NCBI GenBank assembly: GCA_963800175.1 | Contig: CAWCZS010000002.1 | Span: 960,328-1,024,327 of the forward strand | Source: Candidatus Dormiibacterota bacterium | Lineage (GTDB): Bacteria > Chloroflexota > Dormibacteria > Aeolococcales > Aeolococcaceae | Length of the DNA stretch: 64,000 nucleotides | Direction: 5' to 3' | Part shown: piece by piece, positions 7,820 to 63,712 of the stretch | Numbering within the stretch: position 1 is the first letter of the stretch | Layout: each line of letters opens with the position of its first letter | Made by a program: the position numbers and the translations under genes | The notes under the pieces: generated by a model | The model's database searches: none | The model's input: the letters and a program-made list of their open reading frames with translations, nothing else | What the model was told of the DNA's origin: nothing

Positions 7820-8380
7820 ATGACCACGCTCGAGAACCGGCCGAAGACCGCGCTGATCGTCATCGACGTCCAGAACGCGGTGGTCGGAGCCGCGCACGAG
7901 CGCGACGCCGTCGTCGCGAACGTGAATACCCTCGTGGACAGAGCTCGAGATGAGGATGTCCCCGTGATTTGGGTCCAGCATTCGGACGAGGACATCGAGA
8001 AGGGCAGTGAGGGCTGGCAACTCGTCCCGGAACTCTCCCGCGATGCGGCCGAGCCCCTGATCTTCAAGAACTACCCGGACTCCTTTGAGGACTCGACGCT
8101 CGAGTCCGTGCTCGCGGGGCTTGGCGTCGGCCGGCTCGTCGTCGTCGGCGCCCAGACGGATCAGTGCATCCGCTCGACACTGCACGGCGCGCTCGTCCGG
8201 GGATATGACGCCACGCTCGTCAGTGACGCTCACACGACCGAGGACCAGACCGAGTGGGGCGCGCCGCCACCCGACAAGGTGATCGCACACACCAATCTGT
8301 ACTGGACGTATCAGACGGCGCCGGGGCGCACCGCGGGAACGGTCAAGACCCAGGACGTGGACTTCGCCGCCTCCTCCTGA
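7820..8380 (+). CDS. Isochorismatase-family cysteine hydrolase
   Basis: 186 aa with ALIVIDVQN and VVVGAQTDQCIRST motifs typical of isochorismatase-like hydrolases. Confidence 0.8.
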   Translation: MTTLENRPKTALIVIDVQNAVVGAAHERDAVVANVNTLVDRARDEDVPVIWVQHSDEDIEKGSEGWQLVPELSRDAAEPLIFKNYPDSFEDSTLESVLAGLGVGRLVVVGAQTDQCIRSTLHGALVRGYDATLVSDAHTTEDQTEWGAPPPDKVIAHTNLYWTYQTAPGRTAGTVKTQDVDFAASS

Positions 8381-8461
8381 CGGTTCGGGCCTGGGCGCCC
8401 GAACATCCTCTGGCGTCGTCCGTAGAGTGGCCCTGCTACAGCTTCGTTACCGGCACGAACG

Positions 8462-11294: not shown

Positions 11295-13634
11295 ATGAAG
11301 AGCACCGATCGCGCTGCGGCTCCAGGCAACTGGTCGACTCAGCAACTGGCGGAATTCCTCGTCGCTGTGGCCGCAAGCACCGACGAGCGTTCGGCGCGCC
11401 TGTGCGCGATGCAGTGGGCATCCGAGGTGTTGGAGGCCGAGGTGGCGGCTGTCGTCACCGCTGACTCGGTCGTCGACATGATCGGGTTTCCTCGGGGCCA
11501 GGTTCCGGTTGCGGCATTGCTCGTCGCGGGCCGCCACTCGAACCACGAACTCCACGTTCCGCGAGTTGGAGCACTGCGCTCGGTCAGCGTTCCCATTGAA
11601 GAGATCGAGGGCCATCTCGTGGTCGGTCGCTCCGGCGACGAGCACTTTGCTGCCGATGAAGTCGGCCTGCTGCGCGCGATGGGGCGCAGTCTTTCGATGA
11701 CTCTTCGCGCGCTGCGCATGCTGGAGCAGGAGCGAGCGCTCCGCGCCGAGGTGGAGCTGCGCGCGCAGGAGAACCTGCGCCTGCTGCTCATGGTGCAGGA
11801 GCGTCAGACGGCCCTCGAACGGCTTTCCAAGATCCGCTTGTCCATCTCGCGTCGCGCGCCGCTGCCGGAGGTGCTCGACTCAGTTGTTGAAGGGGCTCGT
11901 GATCTGCTCGGCGACGAGGTCGTCGGACTCCGGCTCCTGGATGACGAGCACCCCGGGTTCGCGAATCTGGTCTCGTCGACCGGCGTTTCCCACGCGGTGC
12001 TCGCCACGACAAAACGGAGTTCGCTGTCGAACGGCGCCGGCGGACGCGCGATCGTCGAGGATCGCGTGATCATCCTGAACGACTATCAGAACGACTCTGG
12101 TGCGATGAACGAGTTCGTCGGCGATGAGTTGCAGAGTGCGATCGCCGCTCCGATCCACGAAAACGGTCGTGCGGTTGGCAGCATCACTGTGGCGACGCAC
12201 CGCCCAGGGCGTGAATACACCGACACCGACTGCGAGATGCTCGTGGCGCTCGCGGATCAGGCGAGCATCGCGCTCAACGACGCGAAAGCAGTCGACCAGA
12301 TGCGTCATCTCGCGTACCACGACGCGCTGACCGGTTTGCCGAATCGCCTGCTGTTCTTCGAGCACCTGGTTCGCGCGGTCGCCAACGCCAACCGAAGCGG
12401 GGCGAGCACTGCGGTGCTCTACCTTGACCTTGATCGTTTCAAGGTGGTCAACGACAGCCTGGGTCACAACGTGGGCGACCGCCTCCTCGAGGCAGTGGCC
12501 AAGCGCCTCCGCTCCGCACTGCGGACGGCGGACCTCGCCGCGCGTCTTGGTGGTGACGAGTTTGCCGTGCTGGCCGAGAACACGACTGCCGAAGGCGCGG
12601 TGATTCTTGCGGGGCGGATCTGCGATTCGCTCCGTGATCCCTTCGGCATCAGCGGGCATGAGCTGACCGTGACTGCGAGCGTCGGAGTCGTGGTCGATGC
12701 GGCCGGTCACACCGACGCCGACGCTCTCCTGCGCAACGCGGACCTCGCCATGTATCGGGCCAAGGTCGACGGGCGTGGCGGGCATGCGGTGTACGAACCG
12801 GACATGCACGCCGTTGCCTCGGATCGTGCTCATCTCGAGGGGAACCTGCGCCGTGCGGTGGCGCTTGATCAATTCGAGGTGCATTACCAACCGATCGTCT
12901 GGCTGGCGACCGGCAAGGTGCTCGGTGTGGAAGCGCTGGTGCGCTGGCGTCGCGATGACGGTGTGCTGGTTTCACCGGCCGAGTTCATCCCGGTTGCAGA
13001 GGAGATGGGGCTCATCGTCCCGATCGGACGCATGGTCATGGATACGTCGATGCGCCAGGTGCGCGAATGGCAGGACACGCAGCCCGAGGAATGGAGCCTG
13101 AATCTCAGCATCAACCTCTCGGCGCGACAGCTCTATGAACCCGACATCGTGCGCGAAGTGGTTGATGCGCTGACCAGCACGGGTTTCGATCCGACGCACC
13201 TGACGTTGGAAATCACCGAGACCGCGTTGATGCACGACACTTCGACGGTGAGTGCGCGGCTGGACGAGCTTCGCGCTGTCGGTGCGCGCATCGCACTCGA
13301 CGATTTCGGCACCGGATATTCGTCGTTGAGCTACCTGCGCAACTTTCCAATCGACGTCCTCAAAGTGGACAAGTCATTTATCGACGACATAGCGTCGGGA
13401 TCGGACCGTGCGAATCTCGCCCGCGGGATCATCGAGCTCGGAAGGACCATGCAGCTCGACATCGTCGCCGAGGGAATCGAGGATCCACTGCAGGTCGTCG
13501 AGTTGTTGCGTCTGCAGTGCAGCATGGGTCAGGGCTTTCATTTCTCCCGGCCGCTTCCGCCCGCGGAGCTCAGCAAATACCTCCTCGCGCAGCACGGGGT
13601 TCCGGCGGTCAAACCGTCGATCGTCGCGGTCTAG
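11295..13634 (+). CDS. GAF-GAF-GGDEF-EAL c-di-GMP signalling protein
   Basis: ATG at 11295 lies 5 bp after the FIST stop. GGDEF motifs LTGLPNR and GGDEFAVL. EAL motifs EALVRW, DDFGTGYSSL and QGFHFSRPLP. Single clean 780-aa ORF. Confidence 0.85.
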   Translation: MKSTDRAAAPGNWSTQQLAEFLVAVAASTDERSARLCAMQWASEVLEAEVAAVVTADSVVDMIGFPRGQVPVAALLVAGRHSNHELHVPRVGALRSVSVPIEEIEGHLVVGRSGDEHFAADEVGLLRAMGRSLSMTLRALRMLEQERALRAEVELRAQENLRLLLMVQERQTALERLSKIRLSISRRAPLPEVLDSVVEGARDLLGDEVVGLRLLDDEHPGFANLVSSTGVSHAVLATTKRSSLSNGAGGRAIVEDRVIILNDYQNDSGAMNEFVGDELQSAIAAPIHENGRAVGSITVATHRPGREYTDTDCEMLVALADQASIALNDAKAVDQMRHLAYHDALTGLPNRLLFFEHLVRAVANANRSGASTAVLYLDLDRFKVVNDSLGHNVGDRLLEAVAKRLRSALRTADLAARLGGDEFAVLAENTTAEGAVILAGRICDSLRDPFGISGHELTVTASVGVVVDAAGHTDADALLRNADLAMYRAKVDGRGGHAVYEPDMHAVASDRAHLEGNLRRAVALDQFEVHYQPIVWLATGKVLGVEALVRWRRDDGVLVSPAEFIPVAEEMGLIVPIGRMVMDTSMRQVREWQDTQPEEWSLNLSINLSARQLYEPDIVREVVDALTSTGFDPTHLTLEITETALMHDTSTVSARLDELRAVGARIALDDFGTGYSSLSYLRNFPIDVLKVDKSFIDDIASGSDRANLARGIIELGRTMQLDIVAEGIEDPLQVVELLRLQCSMGQGFHFSRPLPPAELSKYLLAQHGVPAVKPSIVAV

Positions 13635-51683: not shown

Positions 51684-52133
51684 ATCTGCGCTTCGCGACG
51701 ATCGCACCCGCAGCCGAACGTCGCATTCGCGATCTCGCTGCGGCCGCGTATCCGCACGAGGGATGCGGCGTGCTGCTCGGGCGCAGGGATGGGACGCGGA
51801 TGGTCATCGTCGACGTGACGTCTGCTCGCAACATGTGGACGGAGCGTGCGGCCGATCGCTACGACCTCGATCCGGTCGATTTCATGAAGGCGGATCGCGA
51901 CGGTCGATCGCGCGGACTCGACATCGCCGGGCATCTGGCACAGCCATCCCGACCACCCGGCGCAGCCGTCGAAATTCGACACCGACCACGCGTGGGTCGA
52001 TTACGTCTACGTCATCTGTCGCACGACCACCGCGGGCGCCGAGGACATGAACGCGTTTGCGCTCGAAGCTGAAGGGGCCCCGTTCGGACCGGTCTCGATG
52101 GACATCTCGCCCGTCCCCGGCGTGGGGAAGTGA
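51680..52133 (+). CDS. MPN/JAMM-family metalloprotease (Mec-like); frameshift near 51930
   Basis: HEGCGVLLG (E and the JAMM N-terminus). HSHPDHPAQPSKFD is recovered in the adjacent frame. The GTG start overlaps the cysM stop. Confidence 0.7.
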
Positions 52134-53539
52134 GCCCGGCCGGCGCCACTCGCCGGCGCCGCCACGAGGAGGGAGAGCCGATTGCTCCCGCAGTCGGAGT
52201 GGTCGCAATTGTCGGTCGTCCGAACGTCGGAAAATCGACGCTGTTCAACCGGCTGACGGGAACGCGGCGCGCGATCGTCGACGCCTTTGCCGGACTGACT
52301 CGCGACCGCCTGTACGGCGTGGTGGAGTGGGGCGGAAAACGCTTCACGATCGTTGACACTGCCGGCCTCGACGTGCCGTTGCCGAAGAATGCCGCACCGG
52401 ATATCGCTGCGCTGACGCGTGCAACTCGTGAGCAGGCGCAGATGGCGATCACCGAGGCAGATGTCTGCTGCTTCATGGTCGATGTGCGTGACGGTGTCAC
52501 CGCGCTCGACGAGGAAATCGCCCAGGCGCTCCGCCGCGGAGGAAGGCCGGTCATCCTCGTCGGCAACAAGGCCGACAGTCAGGTCGACAGCTATCGCGCC
52601 GATGAGCTGTACCGCCTTGGCCTCGGCGAGCCGCTGCTCATCTCGGCGTTGCAGGGCACCGACACCGGTGATCTGCTCGACCGTTTCGTCGCGGATCTTC
52701 CCGAGAACGGATCGGCCGGAACCGAGCCATCGGTGGGCGAGGTGAGTGTCGCAATCATCGGCCGCCCGAACACCGGCAAATCCTCACTGCTCAACGGCCT
52801 TGTCGGCTCGGAGCGAGCGCTGGTTTCGCCGGTCGCGGGAACCACGCGCGACGTTGTCGACACCGTGGTGTCACTCGACGGAAGGCAGATCCGGCTTGTG
52901 GACACGGCGGGCATTCGCCGCCGCGGCATCGTCACCGAGAACGTTGAGCGCTACAGCCTGTTGCGATCGTTGCGCGCATTGCAACGCAGCGACGTCGGAC
53001 TGCTCGTCATCGATGCGTCCGAGGGAGCGAGCGCGCAGGACCGGCACATCGCCGGCTACGCAGTCGAAGCCGGCGCCGGACTTGTTGTTGCGGCAAACAA
53101 GTGGGATCTCGTGCGCCATGAGGATCGTGTTGACGCGGCCTATCTCGAGAAGCTCAAGGAGTCGTTCTCGTTTGTCCCGGGCGTTCCCGTGCTGACGTTA
53201 TCGGCGACGGAGCATCGCAACCTGAAACGTGTGATGCCCGCAGTGCTTGCCGTAGCCGACGCGCGCGCCATTCACATCCCCACGCCGGCACTCAACAATC
53301 TGATTCGCAACGCACTCGACGAGCATCCGCCGCGCACCCACAAAGGGAAGCGACTCAAGATCCTGTATGCGACGCAGGCGCGAAGCCCAGTCCCGACAAT
53401 CGTGCTCTTCGTGAACGATCCCGAACTGATGCACTTCGCTTACCAGCGCTATCTCGAGAACCGTATTCGAGCAGTCTTCGGGTTCGCGGGCGTGCGACTG
53501 CGGATCGTGACCCGTCACCGCGACGAGAGCGACGACTGA
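52130..53539 (+). CDS. der: Ribosome-associated GTPase Der (EngA), two G domains + KH-like domain
   Basis: Two P-loops (GRPNVGKST and GRPNTGKSS), DTAG and NKxD motifs. Confidence 0.9.
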   Translation: MSPAGATRRRRHEEGEPIAPAVGVVAIVGRPNVGKSTLFNRLTGTRRAIVDAFAGLTRDRLYGVVEWGGKRFTIVDTAGLDVPLPKNAAPDIAALTRATREQAQMAITEADVCCFMVDVRDGVTALDEEIAQALRRGGRPVILVGNKADSQVDSYRADELYRLGLGEPLLISALQGTDTGDLLDRFVADLPENGSAGTEPSVGEVSVAIIGRPNTGKSSLLNGLVGSERALVSPVAGTTRDVVDTVVSLDGRQIRLVDTAGIRRRGIVTENVERYSLLRSLRALQRSDVGLLVIDASEGASAQDRHIAGYAVEAGAGLVVAANKWDLVRHEDRVDAAYLEKLKESFSFVPGVPVLTLSATEHRNLKRVMPAVLAVADARAIHIPTPALNNLIRNALDEHPPRTHKGKRLKILYATQARSPVPTIVLFVNDPELMHFAYQRYLENRIRAVFGFAGVRLRIVTRHRDESDD

Positions 53540-53590
53540 ACTCCCAGTCGGCCTCGGTGGCCCGGCGCGTTAGAGTCGCTAGGCGCGCCT

Positions 53591-53664
53591 CGGGGAGTAG
53601 CTCAGATGGTTAGAGTACTGGTCTGGGGGACCAGGGGTCGCAGGTTCGAGTCCTGTCTCCCCGA
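53591..53664 (+). tRNA. tRNA-Pro (anticodon GGG)
   Basis: Manual fold. Acceptor stem CGGGGAG/CTCCCCG, D-arm GCTC-AGATGGTTA-GAGT, anticodon stem CTGGT/ACCAG with loop CTGGGGG, T-arm GCAGG-TTCGAGT-CCTGT, discriminator A. Confidence 0.8.
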
Positions 53665-53797
53665 TTCGCAGCCCATTGCACTGCAGTGCAGCCGTTTCCA
53701 CTCGGATTGCAGTGGATTCCAACTTGTGGGGATCAGTCATTTTGCAGGGACTAGAACTCATTCCCTGATTGATGTTCTTTCCTGCAAAACCACTCTA
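53622..53797 (+). repeat. Direct repeat copy 1 (tRNA-Pro 3' half + ~135 bp downstream); candidate attL
   Basis: About 90% identical to 62713..62888 by eye. Contains the palindrome GCACTGCAGTGC and a CAGGGA(n11)TCCCTG hairpin. Confidence 0.7.
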
Positions 53798-54182
53798 AGT
53801 TCGCGCGATCTTCGGCGGAGCGCAACGTCTGGGCCGAACCGAGAACGGATCGAGCGGAGCAAAACGCGTCAGCGCAATTCGAGCCGGCCGCGCAGTCGCC
53901 CAGCGTTGTCGACTAACCTCGCGACGGCGGTCGGCGGGACCCCAAGGTGAATAGAGGCCTTCAGCCTGTTCGGCGCCCGCCCAAGGACATGGTGCGGCCC
54001 CGGCCGCGCAACTCAAGCAGCCGCGCCCACCCGGGTTGCCAAACAGCGGGCAGTCCAGGATCGTTGGTTCTCCGGCGCGGGCCGGCTTATCAAGGCGAAG
54101 GTGTCGTTCAGCCCGGCTGTCCATTTCCAAGCGACTGCACAGCGAGATTTCGAAGCACAGTGTAGATTTCGGCGTACAACCG

Positions 54183-54686
54183 TGAAGGTTATCTGGATCG
54201 CGATAGGTGTGTTGGTCGGCGCTAGCGCCAGTGTGCCCGTCGTCATTCTTACGGCTCGCGATGCCACGAGCGTTGCGCCCGGGGCGCCCACACGCTGCAC
54301 GCTCGGATACGACAACGAAGCGTACAGGTCAGGTTCACCGGGGATAACGCCTCGGGCGAGTGCGACATCTGGCAGACTCTCGATGTCCTGTGGTATGCGT
54401 CGACCACGACCTTGGCCGCAGGACGCAGTGGTGTGCAGCGGGCCCACGGCGAGCCTGTCTCGGACGGTTGTCGACGACGGCGCACAGCTACTCGGCACGC
54501 GAAGCGTGTGCGAGCCTCAACAACTGGGTCAAAGGGGGCCAGCTCAGCGTCCATGACCTCGCGCGGGCCTGGCTTGATGGCCGTCTTGAGGTCACACCCG
54601 AAGATCTGGTTTCGTGCGCGGGTGTATTTTTTGGCGAACCTCGAGCACCGGTGCATGTTCGAGTCAGCCAGGAGCAACCCCGTTGA
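54183..54686 (+). CDS. Hypothetical membrane-anchored protein (frame uncertain)
   Basis: GTG start followed by a TM helix (VIWIAIGVLVGASASVPVVIL). A protein-like C-terminus is in ORF 54360..54686. Confidence 0.25.
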
Positions 54687-55179
54687 GGAGGTCCTCAGGA
54701 GCGTCCCAGCGGCTCGGCATGATGAGGGCAACCAGGAAGGCTTCTGCGGTCAGTAGGCCACCTGCAAGGCCGATGATGGAAGCGCGCTTGCCCGCGCCAC
54801 CTGAGGCGTTCGCCTTCCTCGTACCCAGCAAGCCGAGCAGCGCAGCAATCATGCCAATGGACAGCGCGAAGAGCCACATCACTGTACTCCGCAACCCGAA
54901 TGCCCCAAACAGGAACGTCGGAGCCGGGCCACTAAGATCATTGCTATAGCGATAGTCAGACGGGCCGGGGAAGATCGCTGCGATCGCGATCAGCGCCAGG
55001 GCAATGCCGGCGAATAGCGCGGCGACCATGCCCTGCCGATCGGGCTGCCCTGGTCGTACGTATCGCGAGGACGCGAAGGCAAAGGAGGCATCGTCGGTCG
55101 TGATGCACCTTCCGAGCTTACTCCACGCGAAGGTCGGGCTCACCGCAGCACGCAGATTGCAGGGACGAACTTGGATCAT
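54664..55179 (-). CDS. Hypothetical membrane protein
   Basis: 171-aa ORF with 3-4 predicted TM helices. Confidence 0.4.
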   Translation of the reverse strand: MIQVRPCNLRAAVSPTFAWSKLGRCITTDDASFAFASSRYVRPGQPDRQGMVAALFAGIALALIAIAAIFPGPSDYRYSNDLSGPAPTFLFGAFGLRSTVMWLFALSIGMIAALLGLLGTRKANASGGAGKRASIIGLAGGLLTAEAFLVALIMPSRWDAPEDLLNGVAPG

Positions 55180-55249
55180 CGGTAGCAGGCTCTGCCATAT
55201 TCCGCAACCCGCGGCGGGTGGTCCGCCGCGTGCAGAGCTCGTGATTCAG

Positions 55250-55945
55250 CTAACCGCCGCCCACTGAAGCGATCTTCGCGGCTTGAGCGGTCGCCACTCC
55301 CGGCCCCATCGCGTTGGTCACGAAGCCGACGTTGCTCAGCGCATATTCACCGCAGAGCCAGGCGCCTTCTTGGAAGGTCACCGCGATACCAGTGTCGCCT
55401 TGGAGTGTGCCGATCCATTCTTCGGCCCCGATCGCGGTGCCGATCTTGGGCTTGAGCGTCTGCGTAATCCTTGTGAACCCGCTCTTGAACGATAGGACCA
55501 GGCGTGAGTAGTCAGCTGTCGCCGCCGCCGGGGACGCGTAGTGGTACATCTGGATTTCGAAGAAGACCAGATGTCCAGAGTCCTCGTAGTCCCGCTTGTC
55601 CGTATACGCCACCCCACTGATCTGGCCGTCGCTGACGACGTGCAACCCGGCTCCAGGCTTCGCTCCCGCTGCAGCGGCAACCTCGGCGGCTGTCAACATC
55701 ACCGGGGTGATGTCTCCGGTCGCGAAGGCCGGAGCGACTGAAGGGGTTTCGGTGGGGACCGCAGTTGGTACGGCTGTTGCGCTCGGCGTCGGTGTCGCGC
55801 TTGCGGCGGTCGAAGTCGACTTTGTCGGACCGCTGCCACAGGCAGCCGAGACCACCACGATTGCTCCAACTCCGCCCAGCTGGAACCAACTCGACACAAC
55901 TCGACGAAGACGGCTGGACAGCGATGCAGACCGCGGCATGGTGGT
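55250..55945 (-). CDS. Hypothetical secreted lipoprotein
   Basis: Signal peptide with lipobox (VVVSAACGSG), a Thr/Ala/Pro-rich linker, then a globular domain. Confidence 0.5.
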   Translation of the reverse strand, partial: TTMPRSASLSSRLRRVVSSWFQLGGVGAIVVVSAACGSGPTKSTSTAASATPTPSATAVPTAVPTETPSVAPAFATGDITPVMLTAAEVAAAAGAKPGAGLHVVSDGQISGVAYTDKRDYEDSGHLVFFEIQMYHYASPAAATADYSRLVLSFKSGFTRITQTLKPKIGTAIGAEEWIGTLQGDTGIAVTFQEGAWLCGEYALSNVGFVTNAMGPGVATAQAAKIASVGGG

Positions 55946-56616
55946 CATCGGACGTCTCGAACCTGAGCGCTGGTGGCAGCGCTGTGCGTGGGTGCGTTCC
56001 GCCACGCTGCACCGTCCCACCACTGATCATGCGTTGCATCGCGCGTTGCCCCAGCTGGGATCTCGCGAGCAGCGTCGTGCCACGCCGACCCGTCCCACCA
56101 AGCGTCGCGCTCTGGGGACATCACAAATCCATGCAGTCGCAGCATCGCCGGGACTCGCCGTCCATGTGGTGCAAATGCAGCGACCATGAGCAGGCCGGAG
56201 ATTGCCACCTCGATCGCGATGAAGATGAGGGCATGCGCAGGCGGCGTGGCAACGCCGAGATCCGGCGCGCCAAGTTGTTGACCCCCGCCGACGTACCAGC
56301 TGACCCACACCGCTTCGCCGACGAAGTAGCCTGACATGCAGAGGAGGAGGATCGCGATGCGAGCCTGGCGCGCGAGTGCAACCGACGTCATTCCCAGCAG
56401 GTAGAGCGCCGAGATCCACCCAGAGGTCACGACCAAGGTGATCGTCCCGTCGTAGTCGCCTTCCTCCGCGTTCCACGCGAAACAACCGAAGAGGAAGAAG
56501 GCGCCGAGCATGGCAAGCATCATCACGACGACGATCTCTGAAGCAGGGGTCCGATCTGGCGCGGGTGCCCCTCGCATCTCCAGGTTCAGTGCCGGCGTTC
56601 CTTCGATCTGATCCAT
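55945..56616 (-). CDS. Hypothetical membrane protein with WWDG(S/A)AW C-terminal repeats
   Basis: 4 TM helices. C-terminal WWDGSAWHDA and WWDGAAWRNA repeats. Confidence 0.45.
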   Translation of the reverse strand: MDQIEGTPALNLEMRGAPAPDRTPASEIVVVMMLAMLGAFFLFGCFAWNAEEGDYDGTITLVVTSGWISALYLLGMTSVALARQARIAILLLCMSGYFVGEAVWVSWYVGGGQQLGAPDLGVATPPAHALIFIAIEVAISGLLMVAAFAPHGRRVPAMLRLHGFVMSPERDAWWDGSAWHDAAREIPAGATRDATHDQWWDGAAWRNAPTHSAATSAQVRDVR

Positions 56617-56723
56617 GACGCTACTCCCTATTCCGAGGACAATCGCATGGTGCTGTTGTCCTTGGCACCTCGATCCTCGCTCCGCCCGGGCGCCGCCGCA
56701 TCGGTGTCATCCCGCTTCCGTCG

Positions 56724-57410
56724 TTAGGGCTTTCCCTCATCCCCGTTGCCTGCGATGTTCCGCCCCCCGCTGCGAAGCCAGCTGAGCACGGAGAGCACGC
56801 GGCGATTGTCGTCACCGGTCGATTCGATGTCGAGTTTCGAGAAGATGGCGCTCACATGTGCCTCCACGGTCTTGGGGCTGAGGAAGAGACGCTCGCCGAT
56901 AGCGCGATTCGACCGGCCCTCGGCCATGAGGGCGAGGACTTCCTGCTCGCGCGGGGTGAGCGTGTCGAGCGGGTCGACCTCGCGTCGCCGCTGCACGAGG
57001 CGGGACACGATGGCGGCGTCGATCACTGATCGGCCGGCCGCCACCGTGCGCACGGCCGCGACCAGCTCCGCGACGTCGCCGACGCGATCCTTGAGCAGAT
57101 AGCCGACGCCGTCCGCACCGCGTGCGAGCAGCTGCATCGCGTAGTGGGTCTCGACATACTGCGAAAGGAGCAGCACGCCGACCGCGGGATGGCGCTCGCG
57201 CAGCACGAGCGCTGCCTCGAGCCCCTCGGTGCTGTGGGTCGGTGGCATCCGAATATCGACGATGCACGCATCGGGGGGGTCGGCATCGACCGCAGCGAGC
57301 AGCGCGGCTCCGTCGCCAACCTGCGCGATGACCTCGAAACCGGCGTCGACGAGGATGCGGCTCAAACCCTCGCTGAGCAGAACGGAGTTGTCCGCGATGA
57401 TCACGCGCAT
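56724..57410 (-). CDS. Two-component response regulator, NarL/LuxR family
   Basis: REC domain (acid pocket DNSV, phospho-acceptor D in CIVDIRMPP) plus a LuxR HTH (LTPREQEVLALMAEGRSNRAIGERLFLSPKTVEAHVSAIFSKL). Confidence 0.9.
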   Translation of the reverse strand: MRVIIADNSVLLSEGLSRILVDAGFEVIAQVGDGAALLAAVDADPPDACIVDIRMPPTHSTEGLEAALVLRERHPAVGVLLLSQYVETHYAMQLLARGADGVGYLLKDRVGDVAELVAAVRTVAAGRSVIDAAIVSRLVQRRREVDPLDTLTPREQEVLALMAEGRSNRAIGERLFLSPKTVEAHVSAIFSKLDIESTGDDNRRVLSVLSWLRSGGRNIAGNGDEGKP

Positions 57411-59167
57411 GGCAAGTCCATCCGTATCCGGGTGCCTCCACCGAGCGGGCTGTCGACGTCGATCGTGCCATCGAGTGCTCCGACTTGATCGACGAGGCCG
57501 CGCAGCCCGCTGCCCCGATCCGGTTTTGCTCCGCCGACGCCGTCATCCTCGATGACCACGGTGAGATGTCCCGCCGTGGTGCTCGCCGTCACGACGACAG
57601 CGGTAGCGGCTCCGTGTTTGGCGACATTTGTCAGCGCCTCGCAGACCGCGAAATATGCGGCGGCCTCAACTGCGTCGGGGAGACGGCCGGCGATGTCGGT
57701 GTGCACGGTCACGGGCAGCGGCGCCTGCTCCGCGAGCGACTCCAGAGCGGGCGCGAGCCCGGCGTCGGTGAGGATCGCGGGGCGGATGCCCGCAGCCAGC
57801 GCACGCAACTCCGCGAGCGCCGTGCGGAGCTGCTCCTCCGCAACACGGATCACGTCGCGGGCCTTCTCCGTCTGGCCCGTTTCGAGCCGGGCGCTGATCT
57901 GCCCGAGGCTCATCGAGAGAGCGATGAGTCGTTGCTGAGCGCCGTCGTGCAGATCGCGCTCGAGACGCCGGCGCTCCTCGTCGGCAACCTTCACCAGCCG
58001 CGCACGCGATTCCCGCACCTGCGCGAGGCGAGCACGAAGGGCGGCCTGGAGGCGCTCGTTCTCGATGGCGAGCGAGGCGGCGGCGGCGACGCCCGCAACC
58101 AGTGCCGGGTCGTGCTCGAGCGAGTGATCGTGGACGAGCGCGGCCACCTCCTGCCCATGCCGCTCGAGCAGCGTGGCCGTGCGTGAAGACGAGGCATCAG
58201 GGAGTTTGGTGGGACGACCGTCGCTGTCGACCCACCCCTGACGACGGGGCACCCTGTATGCAATCGTCACGGAGGGATCTCGGAGCGCGCGGGCAAGCGC
58301 GTCGCGCAGTTCGCCCGACGGCGGCGAGGCGCCCAGTTCAACGACGAGGTGGCCGATCGCCGCGACGGCAAGGCGGCTGCGCACCAGCCCGACGACGAAC
58401 GTGATCGGCAGGCTCGCGAGCGCGATGGGCGTTGCGATGGGCAGCACGTTCTGCAACCAGGGCGCTGACGTGGTCAGCGCGGGGGTACTGAGGACGATGA
58501 CCGCAAGGAGCATCGGCCCGCTCGCCCAGAACGCCGGCGCGAGCGCACGCCGCGCAGGCAGCGTCCCGCGCCGGTAGTGGAGCCCGATCACCGCAACGAC
58601 ACCTATCGAGACCGCGACGTTGATGGACTCCTGTACGGCTTCAGCGACGTCGTGCTGCACTGCGTCGTGGTGCAAGGCGAAGACGTCGATGCTCGACGGC
58701 GTGGCGAAAAGGATTTCGGGAAATACGTTCCCGCACAGTGCGACGGCATACGCCAGCCCCACGATTGCTCTGTCGAGCCGCGTCTCAAGGCGCCCCGAGG
58801 GAAACGCGACCACGAGGTGGCCGAGTAGGCCGAACCAGGCGATGTTGAGGAGCAGGCCGACGGCGTCAAGTTGCGGGGAGGGCGTGTAGACCAGGTCGCC
58901 AACGCACCATCCAATCCCAGCGGCCGTCATGAGCATGCCGGTTCGGTTTGCTGGGCGACGCAGCCAAGCGATGCCGCCGACGATCACGTAGGTGAGGGCT
59001 CCAAGCGCGTGCAGCAGCGTCGCCGCCGCTGACGGATGATCCCTTCCGACGATTCCGCCGATCAGCGCCAAAACGACAACAGCGACCCCGGCCGTCATTG
59101 CCGCGAACGGACGCGCCGCGCTGCGATTGACGCGGCTGCTCAAACCGACGGCGACGGCCGTACTCAC
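57401..59167 (-). CDS. Sensor histidine kinase (HisKA_3 + HATPase_c) with ~340-aa polytopic N-terminal membrane domain
   Basis: H-box ERRRLERDLHDGAQQRL, HATPase motifs (EALTNVAKHG, DDGVGG, GSGLRGL). About 9 TM helices precede the kinase core. Overlaps the response regulator gene by 10 bp. Confidence 0.85.
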   Translation of the reverse strand: MSTAVAVGLSSRVNRSAARPFAAMTAGVAVVVLALIGGIVGRDHPSAAATLLHALGALTYVIVGGIAWLRRPANRTGMLMTAAGIGWCVGDLVYTPSPQLDAVGLLLNIAWFGLLGHLVVAFPSGRLETRLDRAIVGLAYAVALCGNVFPEILFATPSSIDVFALHHDAVQHDVAEAVQESINVAVSIGVVAVIGLHYRRGTLPARRALAPAFWASGPMLLAVIVLSTPALTTSAPWLQNVLPIATPIALASLPITFVVGLVRSRLAVAAIGHLVVELGASPPSGELRDALARALRDPSVTIAYRVPRRQGWVDSDGRPTKLPDASSSRTATLLERHGQEVAALVHDHSLEHDPALVAGVAAAASLAIENERLQAALRARLAQVRESRARLVKVADEERRRLERDLHDGAQQRLIALSMSLGQISARLETGQTEKARDVIRVAEEQLRTALAELRALAAGIRPAILTDAGLAPALESLAEQAPLPVTVHTDIAGRLPDAVEAAAYFAVCEALTNVAKHGAATAVVVTASTTAGHLTVVIEDDGVGGAKPDRGSGLRGLVDQVGALDGTIDVDSPLGGGTRIRMDLPCA

Positions 59168-59321
59168 GGGCAGATTGTCACACGCGTCTCAGCAGGAAAA
59201 GGTAGGGAAAGCCCTCGGTTTATCAGCGGGTTCTCGCGCATGTCAGGCGTTCGAGGCGTTGCTAGGATCGCCGTGCAGCGAGCTGACGCACCAGCGTTCA
59301 GGGCTGCGAACGGAGACAGAC

Positions 59322-60794
59322 ATGGCAACCGAGGCGGCACGCAGGCCGACGACCGGAGCCCAGCTCGGGTACGGCAGGCTTGCCGCGCTCAACGCCTTCT
59401 GGTTCGGCGGTGGCGCTCATTGGCAGCCGATCAGCATTGCGCTGCTCCCGGTGGGTGCCATGCTCGTCTCCCGCCACGCTCCCGAACTGGTGGTGGGGCG
59501 CGCAACAGCGGCGGGCGGGATTTTCGCCATGCTTGTCCCGATCCTCGCCGGCCATCTGAGCGACCGGACCTCGTCGCGCTGGGGCCGGCGCCGGCCTTGG
59601 ATGGTGATCGGCACCCTCTTCAACGTGATCGGGCTCGGCCTGCTCGCCTTCGCGGGCAGCCCGGCGATGGTGATCGTCGCCTACGTTTTTGTCCAGGCCA
59701 GCAATAACGCGGCCAGCGCCGCCTATGCCGGCGTGATCCCCGACGTGGTGCCCCCCGCTGAGCGCGGACGCGCCAGCGGGCTGCTCGGCACCATGAACCA
59801 GCTCGGCACGGTGGTGGGGGTTGGGCTGGTCGGGGTCGTGCTCGCGGAGCTCGGCAGCAACCGGAGCGGGCTGATCTTCGGCTACGCGGTGATCGTCGTC
59901 ATCCTCATCGCCTCGCTCGTGATCTCTGTTCGGGCGATACACGAGGCGCCGTCGCAGTTCGCGCGGGTCAAACCCGGCGCCCTTCGACGGATCCCGCCGA
60001 TGGTGACTGTGGCCACGATCGCATTCGTTGTCGCGCTCGTTGCTGTGCTCGCTGTGCTCGTCTTTCCCCTCGGCACCGTCGCGTGGGCGGTCGGCGCGGT
60101 TGCAGTTGTGGCCGGTGCGATCGCGGTGGGCACGGGGCTGCAGGTGCCGGTGATTCGCGGCTTCCTTTCGCCCTTCGCCAACCACGACTTTTTCTGGGTG
60201 TTCCTCACCCGCTTTCTCACCACGCTGGGGATCTGGTCGGTGCTGCCGTTCGTGGCCTTCTATTTCCAGGACGTCGTGGGTCTCCACAACGCTGGCGCGG
60301 CAAGTGCGATCTGGCTTCTGGCTGTGATCGGTGGGGCGATCCTGCCGTCGATCATCGGTGGCCACCTCTCCGATCGCCTTGGCCGGCGCAAGGTCTTCGT
60401 CTACCTCTCCAGCGGCATTCAGGCGGCGGTCGTGTCAGTGCTCGTGTTCGGGTTGGTCACCTCGCTGCCGGTGATGTACGTGCTCGGCATTTGCTTCGGG
60501 ATCGGCTACGGGATGTACTACGCCGTCGACTGGGCGCTCGCCTGCGACGTCCTCCCGGATTGCGAGGGTGCGGCGGGCAAGGACATGGGCTTGTGGCACA
60601 CGTCGTTCACGCTGCCGCAGGCGCTCGCACCAGCAGTGCTCGCAGGTGTCCTCTACTACTTCAACCAGGCGGGGCACACCGTCATCGGACTCAGCACCGG
60701 CCACAACCTCGGATTCCGGCTCGTCTTCGGCGGTGCCGCGCTCTGGTTCATTCTCGGGACCGTCATGGTCAGCCAGATCCGTGGCGTGCGATGA
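59322..60794 (+). CDS. MFS transporter (LplT-like candidate)
   Basis: Clean 490-aa ORF with 12 TM helices and MFS motif-A-like GHLSDRTSSRWGRRRPWM / GHLSDRLGRRKV. Confidence 0.8.
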   Translation: MATEAARRPTTGAQLGYGRLAALNAFWFGGGAHWQPISIALLPVGAMLVSRHAPELVVGRATAAGGIFAMLVPILAGHLSDRTSSRWGRRRPWMVIGTLFNVIGLGLLAFAGSPAMVIVAYVFVQASNNAASAAYAGVIPDVVPPAERGRASGLLGTMNQLGTVVGVGLVGVVLAELGSNRSGLIFGYAVIVVILIASLVISVRAIHEAPSQFARVKPGALRRIPPMVTVATIAFVVALVAVLAVLVFPLGTVAWAVGAVAVVAGAIAVGTGLQVPVIRGFLSPFANHDFFWVFLTRFLTTLGIWSVLPFVAFYFQDVVGLHNAGAASAIWLLAVIGGAILPSIIGGHLSDRLGRRKVFVYLSSGIQAAVVSVLVFGLVTSLPVMYVLGICFGIGYGMYYAVDWALACDVLPDCEGAAGKDMGLWHTSFTLPQALAPAVLAGVLYYFNQAGHTVIGLSTGHNLGFRLVFGGAALWFILGTVMVSQIRGVR

Positions 60795-61477
60795 GCGTCG
60801 CGATCCCGCCGGCCGATCTGCTCCCAGTACAGCGCAAGGCGACGCTCACATACCGGCTCATGCGGGTGTTGCTGCTGCCGGTGTTCCACGTGCTGTTCGT
60901 CTTTCAGGTGGCGGGTCGCCGCCACGTGCCCGGAGGGGAGAACTTCGTGCTCATCGCCAACCATCTCAACTGGCTCGATTCGTTTGCTATCACGGCTTCG
61001 TTCCCACCGGAGCCGCGAATGCACTTTCTCGGCGATCCTGCCGGCCTCCAGACCCGCCGATTCCCGTGGGCGTTCATCCGACGGATCGGCGGCTACATCC
61101 CCGTCAACACCCGAACGGGCAGCGGACGGGCGCTGTATGAGCACGTCGATAAGTGTCTGCAGCGGGGCGGAACGGTCGTGCTGTTTCCCGAAGGCCAGTA
61201 CGGCCTCGAAGGGGAGGTCGGTGCATTGAAAAAGGGCTTCGCGCATTTCGCCATCGAGAACGGTGTGCGTGTGCTCCCGGTCGGGCTCTCGGGCACCAAG
61301 GACCTCTGGTTGCGCAAAAGGATCCTCGTGTTGATCGGAGAGCCGATCGACCCGGCCGGTCTCAGCGTGGACGGTCTTGTTGCCGAAGGACATCGTCAGC
61401 TGGCTGCTCTGGTTCCCATATATCGTGATCCCCGCGGACCTCGGTTCCTGCGGAAGCGGCTCACCAATCTGTTCTAG
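60791..61477 (+). CDS. 1-acylglycerol-3-phosphate / lysophospholipid acyltransferase (PlsC family)
   Basis: HxxxxD block IANHLNWLD, FPEG block and VLPVGLSG. The ATG overlaps the MFS stop (ATGA). Confidence 0.8.
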   Translation: MSVAIPPADLLPVQRKATLTYRLMRVLLLPVFHVLFVFQVAGRRHVPGGENFVLIANHLNWLDSFAITASFPPEPRMHFLGDPAGLQTRRFPWAFIRRIGGYIPVNTRTGSGRALYEHVDKCLQRGGTVVLFPEGQYGLEGEVGALKKGFAHFAIENGVRVLPVGLSGTKDLWLRKRILVLIGEPIDPAGLSVDGLVAEGHRQLAALVPIYRDPRGPRFLRKRLTNLF

Positions 61478-61657
61478 ATTCTGGCGCGCAGGTGATTGGC
61501 CACGTCGCAAGCATCAACCACGGCGCCAGATATGTTTGCTGTCAGCACTTTACAGAGGTCGAAATGACCGTGCTCCGGTGGATGGCGAGATGCCAGTGAC
61601 GCGGATGAATAGCGCCGTTGTTGCGCGGCTCCGTGGTCGTTTTCCGGGGTTAGAGGC

Positions 61658-62209
61658 GTGAGCACGTTCGGAGTGCTCTCGTGGTGGGGGACCCTTACTG
61701 CGGCATTCGTTTGCACGGCGATGGGGTGGGTGATTCACCGCCTCAACGTGCATGATCGGCCGAGAGAGTCCCGTTTTGATTACGTACAAGATGAATGGAA
61801 GGCACTGTGCTTTGCCGGCGCGGGCCTCATCTTTCTCGTCGCGACCGTTGCCATCTCCCCGTGGTGGGCCTGGGCGATGTACGTCGCGGTACTTGCCAGC
61901 GTCGCGACAATCGGCCTTGAGATCAGACATCACAAGAACGATTTGGCGACGTTCCTGAGCACGACGCCGGCCGAACCGATCCCGCCTATGGCGACCCAGG
62001 ACGCAGGGTGGCGGCCTTATCCCCGGTGGCGGCCGATCCGACTGTGGTGCCTCGTGTTCGGTCATCGTTGGCGCCGTGTGGTCAGTACGAACCGTCCGAC
62101 GTTGGACGAGTTCAGAGACGACTACGACTTGATCGTGACGGCGATCCAGTGTCGACGCTGCGGAGAGATCGGTGACGTCAAGGACGCGTTGCGGCGGAAG
62201 GCTTCTTGA
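61658..62209 (+). CDS. Hypothetical membrane protein with C-terminal Cys/His motif
   Basis: 3 TM helices. The C-terminal segment is CLVFGHRWRR...CRRCGE. Confidence 0.4.
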   Translation: MSTFGVLSWWGTLTAAFVCTAMGWVIHRLNVHDRPRESRFDYVQDEWKALCFAGAGLIFLVATVAISPWWAWAMYVAVLASVATIGLEIRHHKNDLATFLSTTPAEPIPPMATQDAGWRPYPRWRPIRLWCLVFGHRWRRVVSTNRPTLDEFRDDYDLIVTAIQCRRCGEIGDVKDALRRKAS

Positions 62210-62294
62210 GGCGCCGTGGCGAAATGGCACGAAGGTAGGCTGAACCCGGCCCGGTCAGGGGCGTACGCCCTGCTGAGAGTGGACGAGGCTGCGT

Positions 62295-62423
62295 CTATCC
62301 GCAGGCTTGCTGGCTACATTGAATGGCATTGAACAAGACGTCGATGAATAGGTAAACACCTGTACCGAGCGCGAGGATGATCACGCCGACGATCACCCAC
62401 CCAAGAGGCGACTCGATCTTCAC
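62295..62423 (-). CDS. Small hydrophobic peptide (42 aa) in a lower-GC segment
   Basis: GTG-initiated MKIESPLGWVIVGVIILALGTGVYLFIDVLFNAIQCSQQACG has a single TM helix. Local GC is visibly lower than in flanking sequence. Confidence 0.25.
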   Translation of the reverse strand: MKIESPLGWVIVGVIILALGTGVYLFIDVLFNAIQCSQQACG

Positions 62424-62712
62424 CTTGGAGGCCAGCGTACATCTTGCTCGGTGGCCGCGTGACGACACATTCCAGCGGTACCGACAAGGTAGGCCTGTAG
62501 GCGTTTGATGGGCATGAAGTTGAAGTCTCGAGCGCCGTCTCCCTGAGAGCGTTGGCGAGGCCCGACGTGGTGGTCCGCCCGCGCGCCGCTACCCGCATCA
62601 GTTCCACGCGATTCGAACGGAATCCAAGACGCGCGCTCTAGTCGTGTTTCCAACCATTTTCCGACGAAACCACTCTAAATCGAACTCAGCACTCGTCGGG
62701 AAATGAGGACTA

Positions 62713-62888
62713 ATCTGGGGGACCAGGGGTCGCAGGTTCGAAGTCCTGTCTCCCCGATTCGCAGCCCATTTCACTGCAGTGAAGCCATTTCCACTCAGTA
62801 GCAGCCGATTCCAACTCCTGGGGATCAGTCACTTTGCAGGGACTAGTACTCATTCCCTGATTGATGTTCTTTCCTGCAAAACCACTCT
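62713..62888 (+). repeat. Direct repeat copy 2 (3' half of tRNA-Pro + ~135 bp); candidate attR / pseudo-tRNA remnant
   Basis: Matches 53622..53797 with one extra A in the T-loop and scattered substitutions. The upstream sequence gtcgggaaatgagg resembles a degraded tRNA 5' half. Confidence 0.7.
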
Positions 62889-63028
62889 ATGAAGCGCCAC
62901 GAGAATCCTGGAGACGATGGCGAGGCCAATGCCCGACGATGAGCGGCAGCGCGAAGGCCTGATGAAGCAGGACACTTGGGCGGCGGTCAGGCAGAGGACT
63001 CAACTCAACGACAGAGGGTTTCCCAAGA

Positions 63029-63712
63029 ATGGCGTCGCACCCGGTCCTCAACTTCAGCACCACCGACTTCCTGGAGGGTATGCCGCGCGCGAGTTGTGAG
63101 CAGATTCTTGTGAACAGCACAAAGATCAGGTATGCCGCCGGGACGATCGCGTTTCAGCCTGGGGATCCCGACCGAGCGGACATCCTTGAAACCGGCTTCG
63201 CCCGCATCTACCTGTCCTCGTCTGAGGGGAGGCAGGCCACCATCAGGTACGTACACGCGGGAGAGTTGATGGGCGGGCTGCTCGTCATGGGCGCCACCTT
63301 CGACGGCTCCGTACAAATCGTGGTGAACTCGACGGTGATCCACCTGGACCTTCTCGCCGTGCGTCGACGAGTTGTCGCGGATCCGGCGCTGGGAAAGGCC
63401 GTCGCAGCGGATCTCGCCATGCGGTATTCCCATGCCGTCCGTACGATCGGCCTTCACGCCTTCGGATCCGTCATGCAGCGCGTCGCGTTCGATCTCTTAG
63501 AGCGGGCCAGCCGGAGCCAATTGTCCACCGGCCTGCTCGAGGCGGAGGTGTCCCAACAAGAGATCGCCGAAGGGATCGGATCGGCCCGCCAGGTCGTCAC
63601 TCGGGGCTTGGCTGAATTGCGGTCGCGAAGTCTGGTCGCGACAACCCATCGCCGCGTCAGGATTCTCGATCCGGTGCGTCTGGAGGCGCTGGCCCTGTCG
63701 AATCTCGTCTGA
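63029..63712 (+). CDS. Crp/Fnr-family transcriptional regulator
   Basis: cNMP-binding-like beta-roll N-terminus and a C-terminal HTH (QQEIAEGIGSARQVVTRGLAELRSRSLV). Confidence 0.8.
   Translation: MASHPVLNFSTTDFLEGMPRASCEQILVNSTKIRYAAGTIAFQPGDPDRADILETGFARIYLSSSEGRQATIRYVHAGELMGGLLVMGATFDGSVQIVVNSTVIHLDLLAVRRRVVADPALGKAVAADLAMRYSHAVRTIGLHAFGSVMQRVAFDLLERASRSQLSTGLLEAEVSQQEIAEGIGSARQVVTRGLAELRSRSLVATTHRRVRILDPVRLEALALSNLV

Follow-up and report, generated by a model that had tools for sequence, protein, structure and literature searches.

A probable tandem array of integrative elements at tRNA-Pro(GGG) in Candidatus Dormibacterota whose tRNA-proximal unit carries no integrase

We analysed a stretch of 64,000 nucleotides from Candidatus Dormibacterota (referred to here as the window). 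The segment at 53613-62758 belongs, with a probability that we put at about 0.8, to a tandem array of integrative elements at a tRNA-Pro(GGG) gene, in which it is the unit closest to the tRNA. The builders of the array are small integrative elements of a hitherto undescribed family from soil Dormibacterota. These are abundant, uncultured bacteria of soil and permafrost and, to our knowledge, almost nothing is known of their mobile elements. The array reveals a variable hotspot behind tRNA-Pro(GGG) that is built by a specific family of tyrosine-integrase elements and contains regulator, transporter, stress and redox genes. This is a familiar genome architecture in an unfamiliar phylum: tandem tDNA islands, many of them integrase-less, are already known from Dehalococcoides, streptococci and Prochlorococcus. 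The concrete pair of att site and integrase might serve as a genetic tool or as a strain-level marker of gene flow in peat metagenomes. The locus is also a cautionary case for island finders that require an integrase.

ARAGORN identifies a single tRNA in the 64-kb window, an intact tRNA-Pro(GGG) on the forward strand at 53590-53665, which represents the attL side of the island. Rfam places it at 53591-53664 (RF00005, 63.1 bits), the limits already given in the initial annotation, and the tRNA-Pro that follows der in relatives has the same or almost the same sequence. The 3' 53 nt of the window gene (53613-53665, the att core at the left end of the island) and the following 133 nt (53666-53798, forward strand), a trailer of the type designated D-alpha, occur again in the same orientation at 62705-62890. 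This forms a direct repeat of about 186 nt with approximately 92% identity. The repeat had been correctly recognised in the initial annotation, together with its orientation, but its second copy starts at 62705 rather than 62713 and its tRNA share is 53 nt rather than 43. The two copies align in three collinear blocks (53613-53649/62705-62741, 92%; 53649-53703/62742-62796, 95%; 53709-53797/62801-62889, 93%), joined in the pairwise alignment by two single-base indels. A 44-nt piece of the repeat is found at these two sites only in the 64 kb (0 expected from 100 shuffles).

The distal copy begins with the displaced 3' fragment of the tRNA (62705-62758, forward strand), the attR core, which matches 53613-53665. 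Slight decay is visible: CTGGT on the 5' side of the anticodon stem has become CTAAT, and the T loop has gained one A. Neither ARAGORN nor Rfam calls the fragment a tRNA. It is followed by a second D-alpha trailer (copy B, 62759-62890, forward strand), 91-93% identical to copy A, and is preceded by a conserved arm (62603-62704, forward strand), the putative P arm at the right end of the island. The arm includes phased GATTCCA-like repeats and a box, TTTCC.G.CGAAA.CACTCTAA.TCGAACT. Its outer boundary is sharp, with column conservation among 28 non-redundant modules rising at 62603 from about 0.5 to at least 0.76. Trailer copy A also contains GATTCCA-like iterons, and its similarity to two relatives (L005 and L096) extends to about position 53835. 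The window unit has both ends: core and trailer on the left, arm and displaced core on the right.

The 8.8 kb of cargo between these ends is of native type and multigenic, with genes in both orientations. The two-component system, the MFS/acyltransferase pair and the membrane proteins noted initially are all present according to Pfam and the ORF list. No gene can be assigned in the leftmost part (53799-54660), where autonomous relatives have the integrase and a small HTH gene. Three reverse-strand ORFs for hypothetical membrane or secreted proteins (54664-55179, 55250-56023 and 55945-56616; together 54664-56616) come from the ORF list and match no Pfam family; GC3 is 0.72 in two of them. The starts of these three ORFs are uncertain and two of the three overlap. 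They are followed on the same strand by a NarL/LuxR-type response regulator (56724-57410; Pfam Response_reg and GerE) and its two-component partner, a HisKA_3 histidine kinase (57401-59167; Pfam HisKA_3 and HATPase_c). On the forward strand are an MFS transporter ORF identified by Pfam (59127-60794), a PF01553 acyltransferase (60797-61477) and, from the ORF list, a hypothetical membrane protein of 183 aa with no Pfam match (61658-62209). Homologues of the transporter are about 490 aa in length and cover 86-88% of its ORF, and its true start is probably near 59320.

Since both the GC content of the island (0.653) and its GC3 equal those of the backbone, there is no compositional sign of recent import. 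Profiling of GC and codon usage, which had been suggested as a check for foreign origin, revealed no difference from the backbone. The lower-GC end reported initially does exist (0.62 for 62210-62594 and 0.55-0.60 in 400-nt windows around the repeats), but the decrease is modest and the island overall does not depart from its surroundings.

The initial annotation described the island as lacking integrase and excisionase genes, and the searches agree. No integrase, excisionase or transposase domain was detected between the repeat copies by Pfam and motif scans, and no integrase or integrase remnant was found in or next to the island or anywhere in the 64-kb window. The integrase search combined Pfam at E<=1, tblastn with two integrases, and a family HMM (--max) on six-frame translations; the HMM returned only noise at E<=10 and found no integrase downstream of trailer copy B. 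For the gene-less stretch at 53799-54660, the ORFs gave no Pfam match at E<=1, and neither tblastn with the integrase and HTH protein of the related genome L008 nor the family HMM in six frames returned anything. By the same tblastn comparison, the small HTH gene is absent from the window unit. A regular-expression screen for tyrosine recombinases is unreliable when used alone: it missed the L008 integrase, which has GW, not GH, before the catalytic Tyr. Judged from its gene content, the window unit is unable to move by itself. It would be either a fixed remnant or a cis-mobilizable unit using an integrase encoded elsewhere.

Comparison with related genomes and metagenomes defines a module with three parts: a conserved arm of 110 nt, the 3' core of the tRNA and a trailer (D) of 130-200 nt. 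Relatives are 79-84% identical to the window in DNA sequence up to the tRNA; unrelated DNA follows, and then arm and core again. Downstream of the tRNA there is one arm-plus-core module in L002, one in L009 and two in L010. The arm is conserved in all of these (twice in L010) and in 29 metagenome contigs from peat or permafrost, where its motif always lies about 42 nt before a tRNA-Pro core. Contigs L082, L094, L105 and L109 each carry two to three modules separated by unrelated cargo, and different contigs hardly ever have cargo in common. The same integrase-less trailer end, of alpha or beta type, is shared by units with different cargo, and both types coexist within one array without having been homogenised. 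Identity to the window is 81-96% for the arm and 82-92% for D-alpha, compared with 79-84% for the der coding region; the modules are thus more conserved than the neighbouring coding sequence. Within the module, the core hardly varies from the anticodon loop onward, unlike the arm and the 5' side of the anticodon stem. The switch in conservation, seen in about 35 modules, falls where the anticodon loop begins. A tRNA-Pro core accompanies every module, so that the repeat is not the general intergenic element that had been named initially as a refuting possibility.

Nothing within 10 kb of the site in any relative matches the interior of the window island, at either the DNA or the protein level. 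The relatives compared yielded neither a truly empty site nor the same right flank; the DNA behind the tRNA differs in each of them. No circular junction turned up in the sequences compared. A Crp/Fnr-family regulator lies to the right of the island (63029-63712, forward strand; Pfam cNMP_binding and HTH_Crp_2). It had been taken for the chromosomal flank, with tRNA-Pro directly followed by this gene as the expected empty site. No relative has a Crp/Fnr gene within 10 kb of der-tRNA-Pro. Because it is preceded by its own core and leader, the gene is most likely the first cargo gene of a second unit and not chromosomal backbone, and the expected arrangement was therefore probably the wrong one to look for. 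Exact-protein look-ups gave no match and no population variants for Der, the 183-aa protein or the acyltransferase, probably because gene callers chose different start codons. The Crp/Fnr and response-regulator proteins are recorded only on contigs of 1.4-1.8 kb and on one contig of more than 1 Mb. Among viral contigs scanned for the arm, the arm box and the core, none was positive except for an unrelated provirus (L112) at a different tRNA-Pro.

In related genomes, a dedicated integrase is located exactly behind the trailer. The closest integrase-bearing relative, L008, has a 332-aa tyrosine recombinase directly behind tRNA-Pro (the adjacency spans a gap of two Ns). The family (P0001-P0014) has 69-98% internal identity, with the next matches at 32%, and is less than 35% identical to anything characterised. 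Its members lie behind tRNA-Pro and trailer in L113/L114, L118 and L121/L122, and behind a displaced core and trailer within arrays in L117 and L120. The integrase-bearing unit of L117 ends in an arm 87% identical to that of the window, which is itself 87-92% identical to the arms ending other units. The window trailer is homologous to the integrase leaders (putative P' arms) and aligns with those of L117 and L118 up to AAAACCAC, about 12 nt before the integrase ATG (alignment A6). The protein is Xer-like and has no recognised arm-binding domain, so that we only infer that the GATTCCA-like repeats are arm sites; they are putative protein-binding sites. Integrase-bearing units are rare: in unbiased samples an integrase is missing behind about 33 of 34 cores, an excess of integrase-less units of approximately 30 to 1. 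No primase, helicase or polymerase families were found in the integrase-bearing relatives, and no conjugation genes in any related unit. A search among the cargo of relatives for a shared gene that might be an unrecognised recombinase revealed none; the Pfam summaries, two of them confined to the top 25 families, contain only ordinary accessory families.

Site-specific integration into the tRNA gene, as originally proposed, is supported by the recurrence of the same att architecture with different cargo, by the break in conservation at the anticodon loop and by the position of the integrase family. In the mechanism that we envisage, attP would consist of the 110-nt arm, the 3' 53 nt of tRNA-Pro and the 130-200-nt trailer, which would double as the leader of the Xer-like integrase gene. 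The element would insert by recombination in the anticodon loop, a classic crossover site of tyrosine integrases, to which the conservation pattern points here. The tRNA 3' half and trailer of the incoming element would restore the tRNA, and the old 3' half would be displaced to the far end, behind the arm of the element. Successive insertions would push older units downstream and so generate arrays. The repeat had also been considered unusually long for an att core. It is long, but not all of it is core: since the trailer runs into the integrase gene in relatives, the 186 nt can be read as a 53-nt core plus the 133-nt integrase leader (P' arm) of two successive units, unit 1 and unit 2. Copy B would most likely be the leader of the next, older unit, also without an integrase.

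Other explanations account for part of these observations. Units might be exchanged by RecA-type homologous recombination, with modules of 300-400 bp acting as portable homology and integrase-bearing units as just one kind of passenger. The modules are indeed long and 80-93% identical within and between genomes, nearly all cores in the unbiased samples lack an integrase, and the cargo is of native type; an ortholog of the MFS gene occurs elsewhere in a normal chromosomal, non-array context beside a 23-codon acyltransferase remnant. We nevertheless consider this unlikely, as it explains neither how a displaced tRNA 3' half came to lie on a non-tRNA arm, nor the conservation break at the anticodon loop, nor the integrase family tied to exactly this trailer, and alpha and beta trailers persist side by side in one array without homogenisation.

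Local segmental duplication of the tRNA-Pro region, raised as an alternative in the initial annotation, would require no mobile element: the second copy would have lost its 5' half by decay and the genes between would be ordinary ones. The backbone composition and housekeeping-like cargo would fit, as would a weak resemblance of the distal copy to the acceptor 5' strand (CGGGAAAT versus CGGGGAGT). It is, however, very improbable, given that one and the same arm, unrelated to the upstream region of the tRNA itself, stands in front of the displaced core in four genomes and 29 metagenome contigs with different cargo, also in arrays, and that the island interior is unmatched near the site in any relative. 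Even less credible is a functional non-coding RNA or regulatory unit, for example a tRNA-like sRNA, made up of arm, partial tRNA and trailer. The conservation of the module relative to adjacent coding DNA and a compensatory double change in the anticodon stem of the displaced core of L009 might suggest this. But no consensus fold of the arm emerges on either strand (alifold energy 0.0, z 0.2-0.7), the true tRNA is the only Rfam match, the anticodon stem of the window's displaced core is broken and its T loop carries an insertion, and the trailer is accounted for as an integrase leader.

Within the integrative-element reading, a more tentative proposal, which we regard as possible although rather doubtful, is that integrase-less units are the main active form, each multigene cassette of native-type accessory genes having a complete attP-like module of 300-400 bp (arm with phased GATTCCA repeats, core and leader) and being shuffled in trans by the rare integrase-bearing units. 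The greater conservation of the modules than of adjacent coding DNA, the association of one trailer type with different cargo and the numerical excess of integrase-less units would be consistent with this. If true, it would imply an integron-like cassette economy in Dormibacterota, anchored on a tRNA gene and operating between genomes and between array positions.

The island can be compared with several known systems. As in tDNA-integrated genomic islands of the Islander type (PMC4383910), an intact target tRNA lies at one end and a direct, displaced 3' fragment at the other, and the conservation pattern would place the crossover at a canonical tRNA sublocation; the window island has no internal integrase. 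Similarly, it has both ends of the Dormibacterota tRNA-Pro element defined by P0001-P0014 but no integrase behind the trailer. The closest analogues appear to be the ssrA islands of Dehalococcoides, CIME accretion and the tycheposon islands. In Dehalococcoides, a related Terrabacteria lineage, multiple islands occur in tandem behind a single-copy tDNA, and either that gene or a direct repeat of its 3' end delimits each of them; about half (15 versus 16) have no integration module and were discussed as possibly cis-mobilizable or fixed (McMurdie et al. 2011, PMC3146451). The two systems also share extra conserved sequence just upstream of each repeat and an integration module that, where present, adjoins attL (PMC3146451). 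They differ in target (tRNA-Pro(GGG) here, tmRNA in Dehalococcoides), probable crossover (anticodon loop versus T loop), recombinase (332-aa Xer-like tyrosine versus 540-aa serine) and repeat (a 53-nt core with conserved arms of 110 nt and 130-200 nt versus 20 bp), and the integrase-less fraction in our unbiased samples is much higher.

CIMEs, known from the tandem accretion of ICESt1-type islands (Pavlovic et al. 2004, cited in PMC3146451; review PMC5704250), resemble the window unit in having attL and attR flanks, no recombination or transfer genes, and related units in tandem at one att site. Experiments have demonstrated that a partner ICE mobilises CIMEs, whereas the window unit is described from its sequence; furthermore, units related to the latter have no conjugation genes and their host belongs to an uncultured phylum. 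Tycheposon islands of Prochlorococcus (Hackl et al., bioRxiv 10.1101/2020.12.28.424599) likewise have tRNA genes as anchors and contain scattered tRNAs, both full and partial; newer insertions push older ones inward, most of the material lacks an integrase, and the cargo is niche-adaptive. Tycheposons themselves carry an integrase and a primase/helicase replication module; the window has neither, and no replication genes were found in the Dormibacterota units. The long conserved arms seen here are not a stated feature of tycheposons.

The window array differs from an integron, in which IntI adjoins attI and single-gene cassettes end in an attC that is an imperfect palindrome: no integrase lies beside the array start, the units are multigenic with genes in both orientations, and the arm has no hairpin consensus. 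An SSV-type integrase split across attP was considered and rejected: the conserved arm and trailer amount to no more than about 350 nt, and the integrase gene is intact and lies wholly downstream of the trailer. In pSAM2-type elements of actinomycetes, a tyrosine integrase targets tRNA-Pro with an identity segment of 58 bp extending from the anticodon loop to the 3' end; besides int and xis, pSAM2 has genes for replication and transfer. By this general description, the Dormibacterota elements resemble pSAM2 in combining a tyrosine integrase at tRNA-Pro with identity from the anticodon loop to the 3' end.

A single tRNA gene is called in the window by ARAGORN, a tRNA-Pro(GGG) at 53590-53665 (Rfam tRNA match at 53591-53664, 63.1 bits). 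A repeat search pairs 53613-53797 with 62705-62889 in three collinear blocks (92-95% identity), which pairwise alignment resolves into one repeat of approximately 186 nt broken by two 1-base indels. It comprises the 3' 53 nt of the tRNA gene, from the 5' side of the anticodon stem, and a 133-nt trailer. No further occurrence of a 44-nt piece of it exists in the 64 kb, where chance alone would give none. The coordinates given in the initial annotation are accurate to within about 10 nt and its central interpretation, integration at a tRNA site, is upheld; the finding is real. We consider the intervening segment (53613-62758) to be, with a probability of roughly 0.8, one unit, without an integrase, of a tandem array that an element family built through site-specific recombination at the anticodon loop.

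The position of the exchange can be read from approximately 35 displaced copies of the tRNA 3' end (the 'core') with their flanks. The core is essentially invariant between CTGGGGG, in the anticodon loop, and CCCCGA at its 3' end. Variation is seen in the stem's 5' strand (CTGGT, CTAGT, CTAAT), and the sequence 5' of the stem diverges together with the arm, the stretch of about 110 nt immediately 5' of each displaced fragment. Column conservation among 28 non-redundant modules, approximately 0.5 to the left of window position 62603, reaches at least 0.76 there and 0.97 at the anticodon loop. This switch implies a crossover in the anticodon loop, a canonical site for tyrosine integrases (PMC4383910). 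The right-hand part of a displaced core would then be the former working tRNA gene and the left-hand part would derive from the incoming element. In the window, the displaced core is slightly decayed (anticodon stem CTAAT and an extra A in the T loop). In the displaced core of one relative (L009:19676-19719) both strands of the anticodon stem have changed in compensation (CTAGT...ACTAG versus CTGGT...ACCAG). This preserves the inverted repeat around the putative crossover, as expected if one recombinase binds both half-sites.

The arrangement recurs in related genomes. GTPase Der, encoded to the left of the island (52130-53539), shares 94-95% identity with its counterparts in several Candidatus Dormibacterota metagenome-assembled genomes (MAGs) and 88% with those in others. 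Their DNA is 79-84% identical to the window as far as the tRNA end; beyond the tRNA, neither the island interior nor the Crp gene finds a match. A further, incomplete copy of tRNA-Pro lies 5-6.6 kb downstream in each of two relatives (L002 and L009); another (L010) has two, at 2 kb and 7.7 kb. The intervening genes (kinase, flavin monooxygenase, TetR regulators, S9 peptidase, ABC transporter) are unlike those of the window and unlike one another, with no recombinase among them in these three loci. In the 88% relatives and in two integrase-bearing loci (L121 and L122), a glycerol-3-phosphate dehydrogenase gene, gpsA, lies between der and tRNA-Pro (L009:11414-12415; L010:11415-12464; L121:5349-6365). 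In the window (53540-53590) and the 94% relatives, the tRNA directly follows der. Judging from this gene order, gpsA must therefore be elsewhere or have been lost from this position.

The arm is conserved in the window, L002, L009 and both L010 copies. When metagenome contigs were scanned with its most conserved box, 29 contigs matched, all from peat or permafrost, and nearly all have a tRNA-Pro core at a fixed distance behind the arm. Four contigs (L082, L094, L105 and L109) carry two or three modules 1-7 kb apart. In L082 the spacing between two arm-plus-core modules (212-315 and 1193-1314) is only about 1 kb, which shows that a single short gene, or even less, can make up a unit. Behind the core is a trailer of one of two homologous types: alpha (approximately 133-170 nt), to which both window copies belong, and beta (approximately 200 nt). 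Outside the modules, different contigs almost never have sequence in common. GC3-called genes from 15 long loci indicate that the cargo is of ordinary accessory function: universal stress proteins, V-type and P-type ATPases, aquaporin, TetR/MarR regulators, two-component systems, dehydrogenases, cupins, glyoxalases, peroxiredoxins, ECF sigma factors and a PIN toxin. The arm and alpha trailer also contain phased, GATTCCA-like direct repeats, putative protein-binding sites, at about 12 times their density in the rest of the window (post-hoc Poisson P ~3e-7). The only other assembly encoding the exact Crp protein (L110, approximately window 62850-64275; Logan, ERR10755938) ends inside the alpha trailer, near window 62850. 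Such a break is typical of repeated modules and illustrates that short-read metagenomes assemble these arrays incompletely.

In L112, a viral contig of a different lineage, a PF00589 integrase directly follows tRNA-Pro(GGG). Used as a tblastn probe, this protein identifies in a relative with 94% Der identity (L008, PKXZ01000081.1) a complete tyrosine recombinase of 332 aa (11524-12522), just behind tRNA-Pro across a 2-N gap and followed on the opposite strand by a 94-aa ORF. The NN (L008:11509-11510) falls within the T arm of the tRNA, where ARAGORN makes no call, and the tRNA-integrase adjacency in this closest integrase-bearing relative therefore spans a scaffold gap or masked bases. The protein defines a tight family (P0001-P0014; 69-98% identity, next matches 32%). 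It is Xer-like, its best structural and NCBIfam matches being XerA, XerC and XerD, well under their cut-offs. The genomic contexts of its members agree with one another. The order tRNA-Pro, trailer, integrase is found in L118, after der and gpsA, on a backbone shared with the window, in L121 and L122, and before a 91-aa ORF and a DUF2637 gene in L113 and L114. In L120 the integrase, preceded by an SDR cargo gene, divergent arm, displaced core and trailer, has behind it an HTH_3 gene and an Opp transporter. L117 contains an array of three modules; behind the second come a trailer and an integrase with a frameshift, and 7.5 kb beyond, this unit closes with an arm that shares 87% identity with the arm of the window. 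In L116 the integrase, also frameshifted, is accompanied by a type III restriction-modification system. In these two of the seven distinct integrase-bearing contexts, a single frameshift splits the gene into two ORFs (L116:107-1107 and L117:9971-10997), and the units look like ones caught while losing their integrase. Judging from its translation, the ORF behind the L121 integrase (8093-8650) may correspond to the HTH-containing N terminus of an IS630-family transposase.

By alignment, the alpha trailer of the window is homologous to the L117 and L118 integrase leaders as far as AAAACCAC, approximately 12 nt before the integrase ATG. The long repeat is thus the 53-nt core plus an integrase leader (P' arm), and its two copies reflect two units in tandem. 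The initial annotation regarded the repeat as unusually long for an att core; not all of it is core. The end of the beta trailer (L010:12750-12775; ...CAT...GCGCATACATAGCGCTTACAGTTTTG) resembles L008:12860-12890 (...CAT...GCTTACGCAGCGCTTACACTTTG), upstream of the small minus-strand HTH gene behind the integrase. This match, seen in one integrase-bearing locus only, may mean that the beta trailer is the scar of a deletion that took out the integrase and most of the HTH gene.

Six-frame translations of the window and all loci were searched using the integrase-family HMM with all filters off. Matches occur only in L008 and L113-L122; there is none in the window, and the island thus lacks an integrase, as initially noted. 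In loci gathered without regard to integrase, through Der or the arm, an integrase follows only about 1 of the 34 cores with at least 700 nt downstream; L118, L121 and L122 were classified by hand for this count. The second core-plus-trailer (62705-62890) is followed by the Crp/Fnr gene (63029-63712), which is absent near this site in relatives and, by position, would be the first cargo gene of a second, likewise integrase-less unit running off the window.

We regard plain segmental duplication, the alternative raised in the initial annotation, as very improbable. Still less probable is a structured-RNA function for the conserved arm, for which no consensus fold is found on either strand. Homologous recombination through the long modules would exchange units and is a plausible contributing process, but is unlikely as the principal explanation since it accounts neither for the origin of the junctions nor for a dedicated integrase. 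On the preferred reading, an integrase-less unit produced by site-specific recombination, the island may be a fixed remnant or may still be mobilisable in trans. Three observations point to continuing constraint or movement of units: modules are 81-96% conserved compared with 79-84% for adjacent der coding DNA, units with different cargo have an alpha- or beta-type trailer end in common, and integrase-less units far outnumber integrase-bearing ones. Against continuing movement are the window's lack of an integrase, the slightly decayed attR core (that of the displaced side) and the absence of empty-site or circle evidence.

The architecture, a tRNA-anchored tandem island that has lost its integrase, is ordinary; the element family itself is undescribed and its host phylum uncultured. 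The closest described analogue is the tandem ssrA islands of Dehalococcoides. There, the tmRNA gene or repeats of its 3' end mark the island borders, further conserved sequence lies upstream of each repeat, and an integration module adjoins attL (PMC3146451). This module is missing in 15 of 31 islands, discussed as cis-mobilizable or fixed (PMC3146451). The present family differs in target gene, recombinase class and repeat length. The array follows the same logic as the cis-mobilizable element (CIME)/accretion concept and the tycheposon-shaped islands of Prochlorococcus. The unit has the structure that defines a CIME and lacks the integrase that defines tDNA islands and tycheposons. It is not an integron.

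The island encodes three hypothetical membrane or secreted proteins (54664-56616, minus strand), a LuxR-type response regulator (56724-57410), a HisKA_3 kinase (57401-59167), an MFS transporter (59127-60794), a PF01553 acyltransferase (60797-61477) and a 183-aa membrane protein (61658-62209); no gene could be assigned in 53799-54660 or 62210-62602. Compositional profiling, suggested initially as a check, does not set it apart: GC is 0.653 in both island and rest of the window, and GC3 (0.78) matches the remainder (0.80 +/- 0.05). The cargo looks native. The MFS ORF as called overlaps the kinase gene; its homologues, of about 490 aa, cover only 86-88% of it, and the true start is therefore probably near 59320. 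Hundreds of Dormibacterota homologues of this gene exist. An ortholog (79% identical) lies in a chromosomal context without modules, followed by an acyltransferase reduced to its last 23 codons (L123:4132-4200, also in L124-L128; in L123, 70% identity to window residues 203-225). This remnant suggests that the MFS-acyltransferase pair is ancestral and that the island carries its intact form at another locus.
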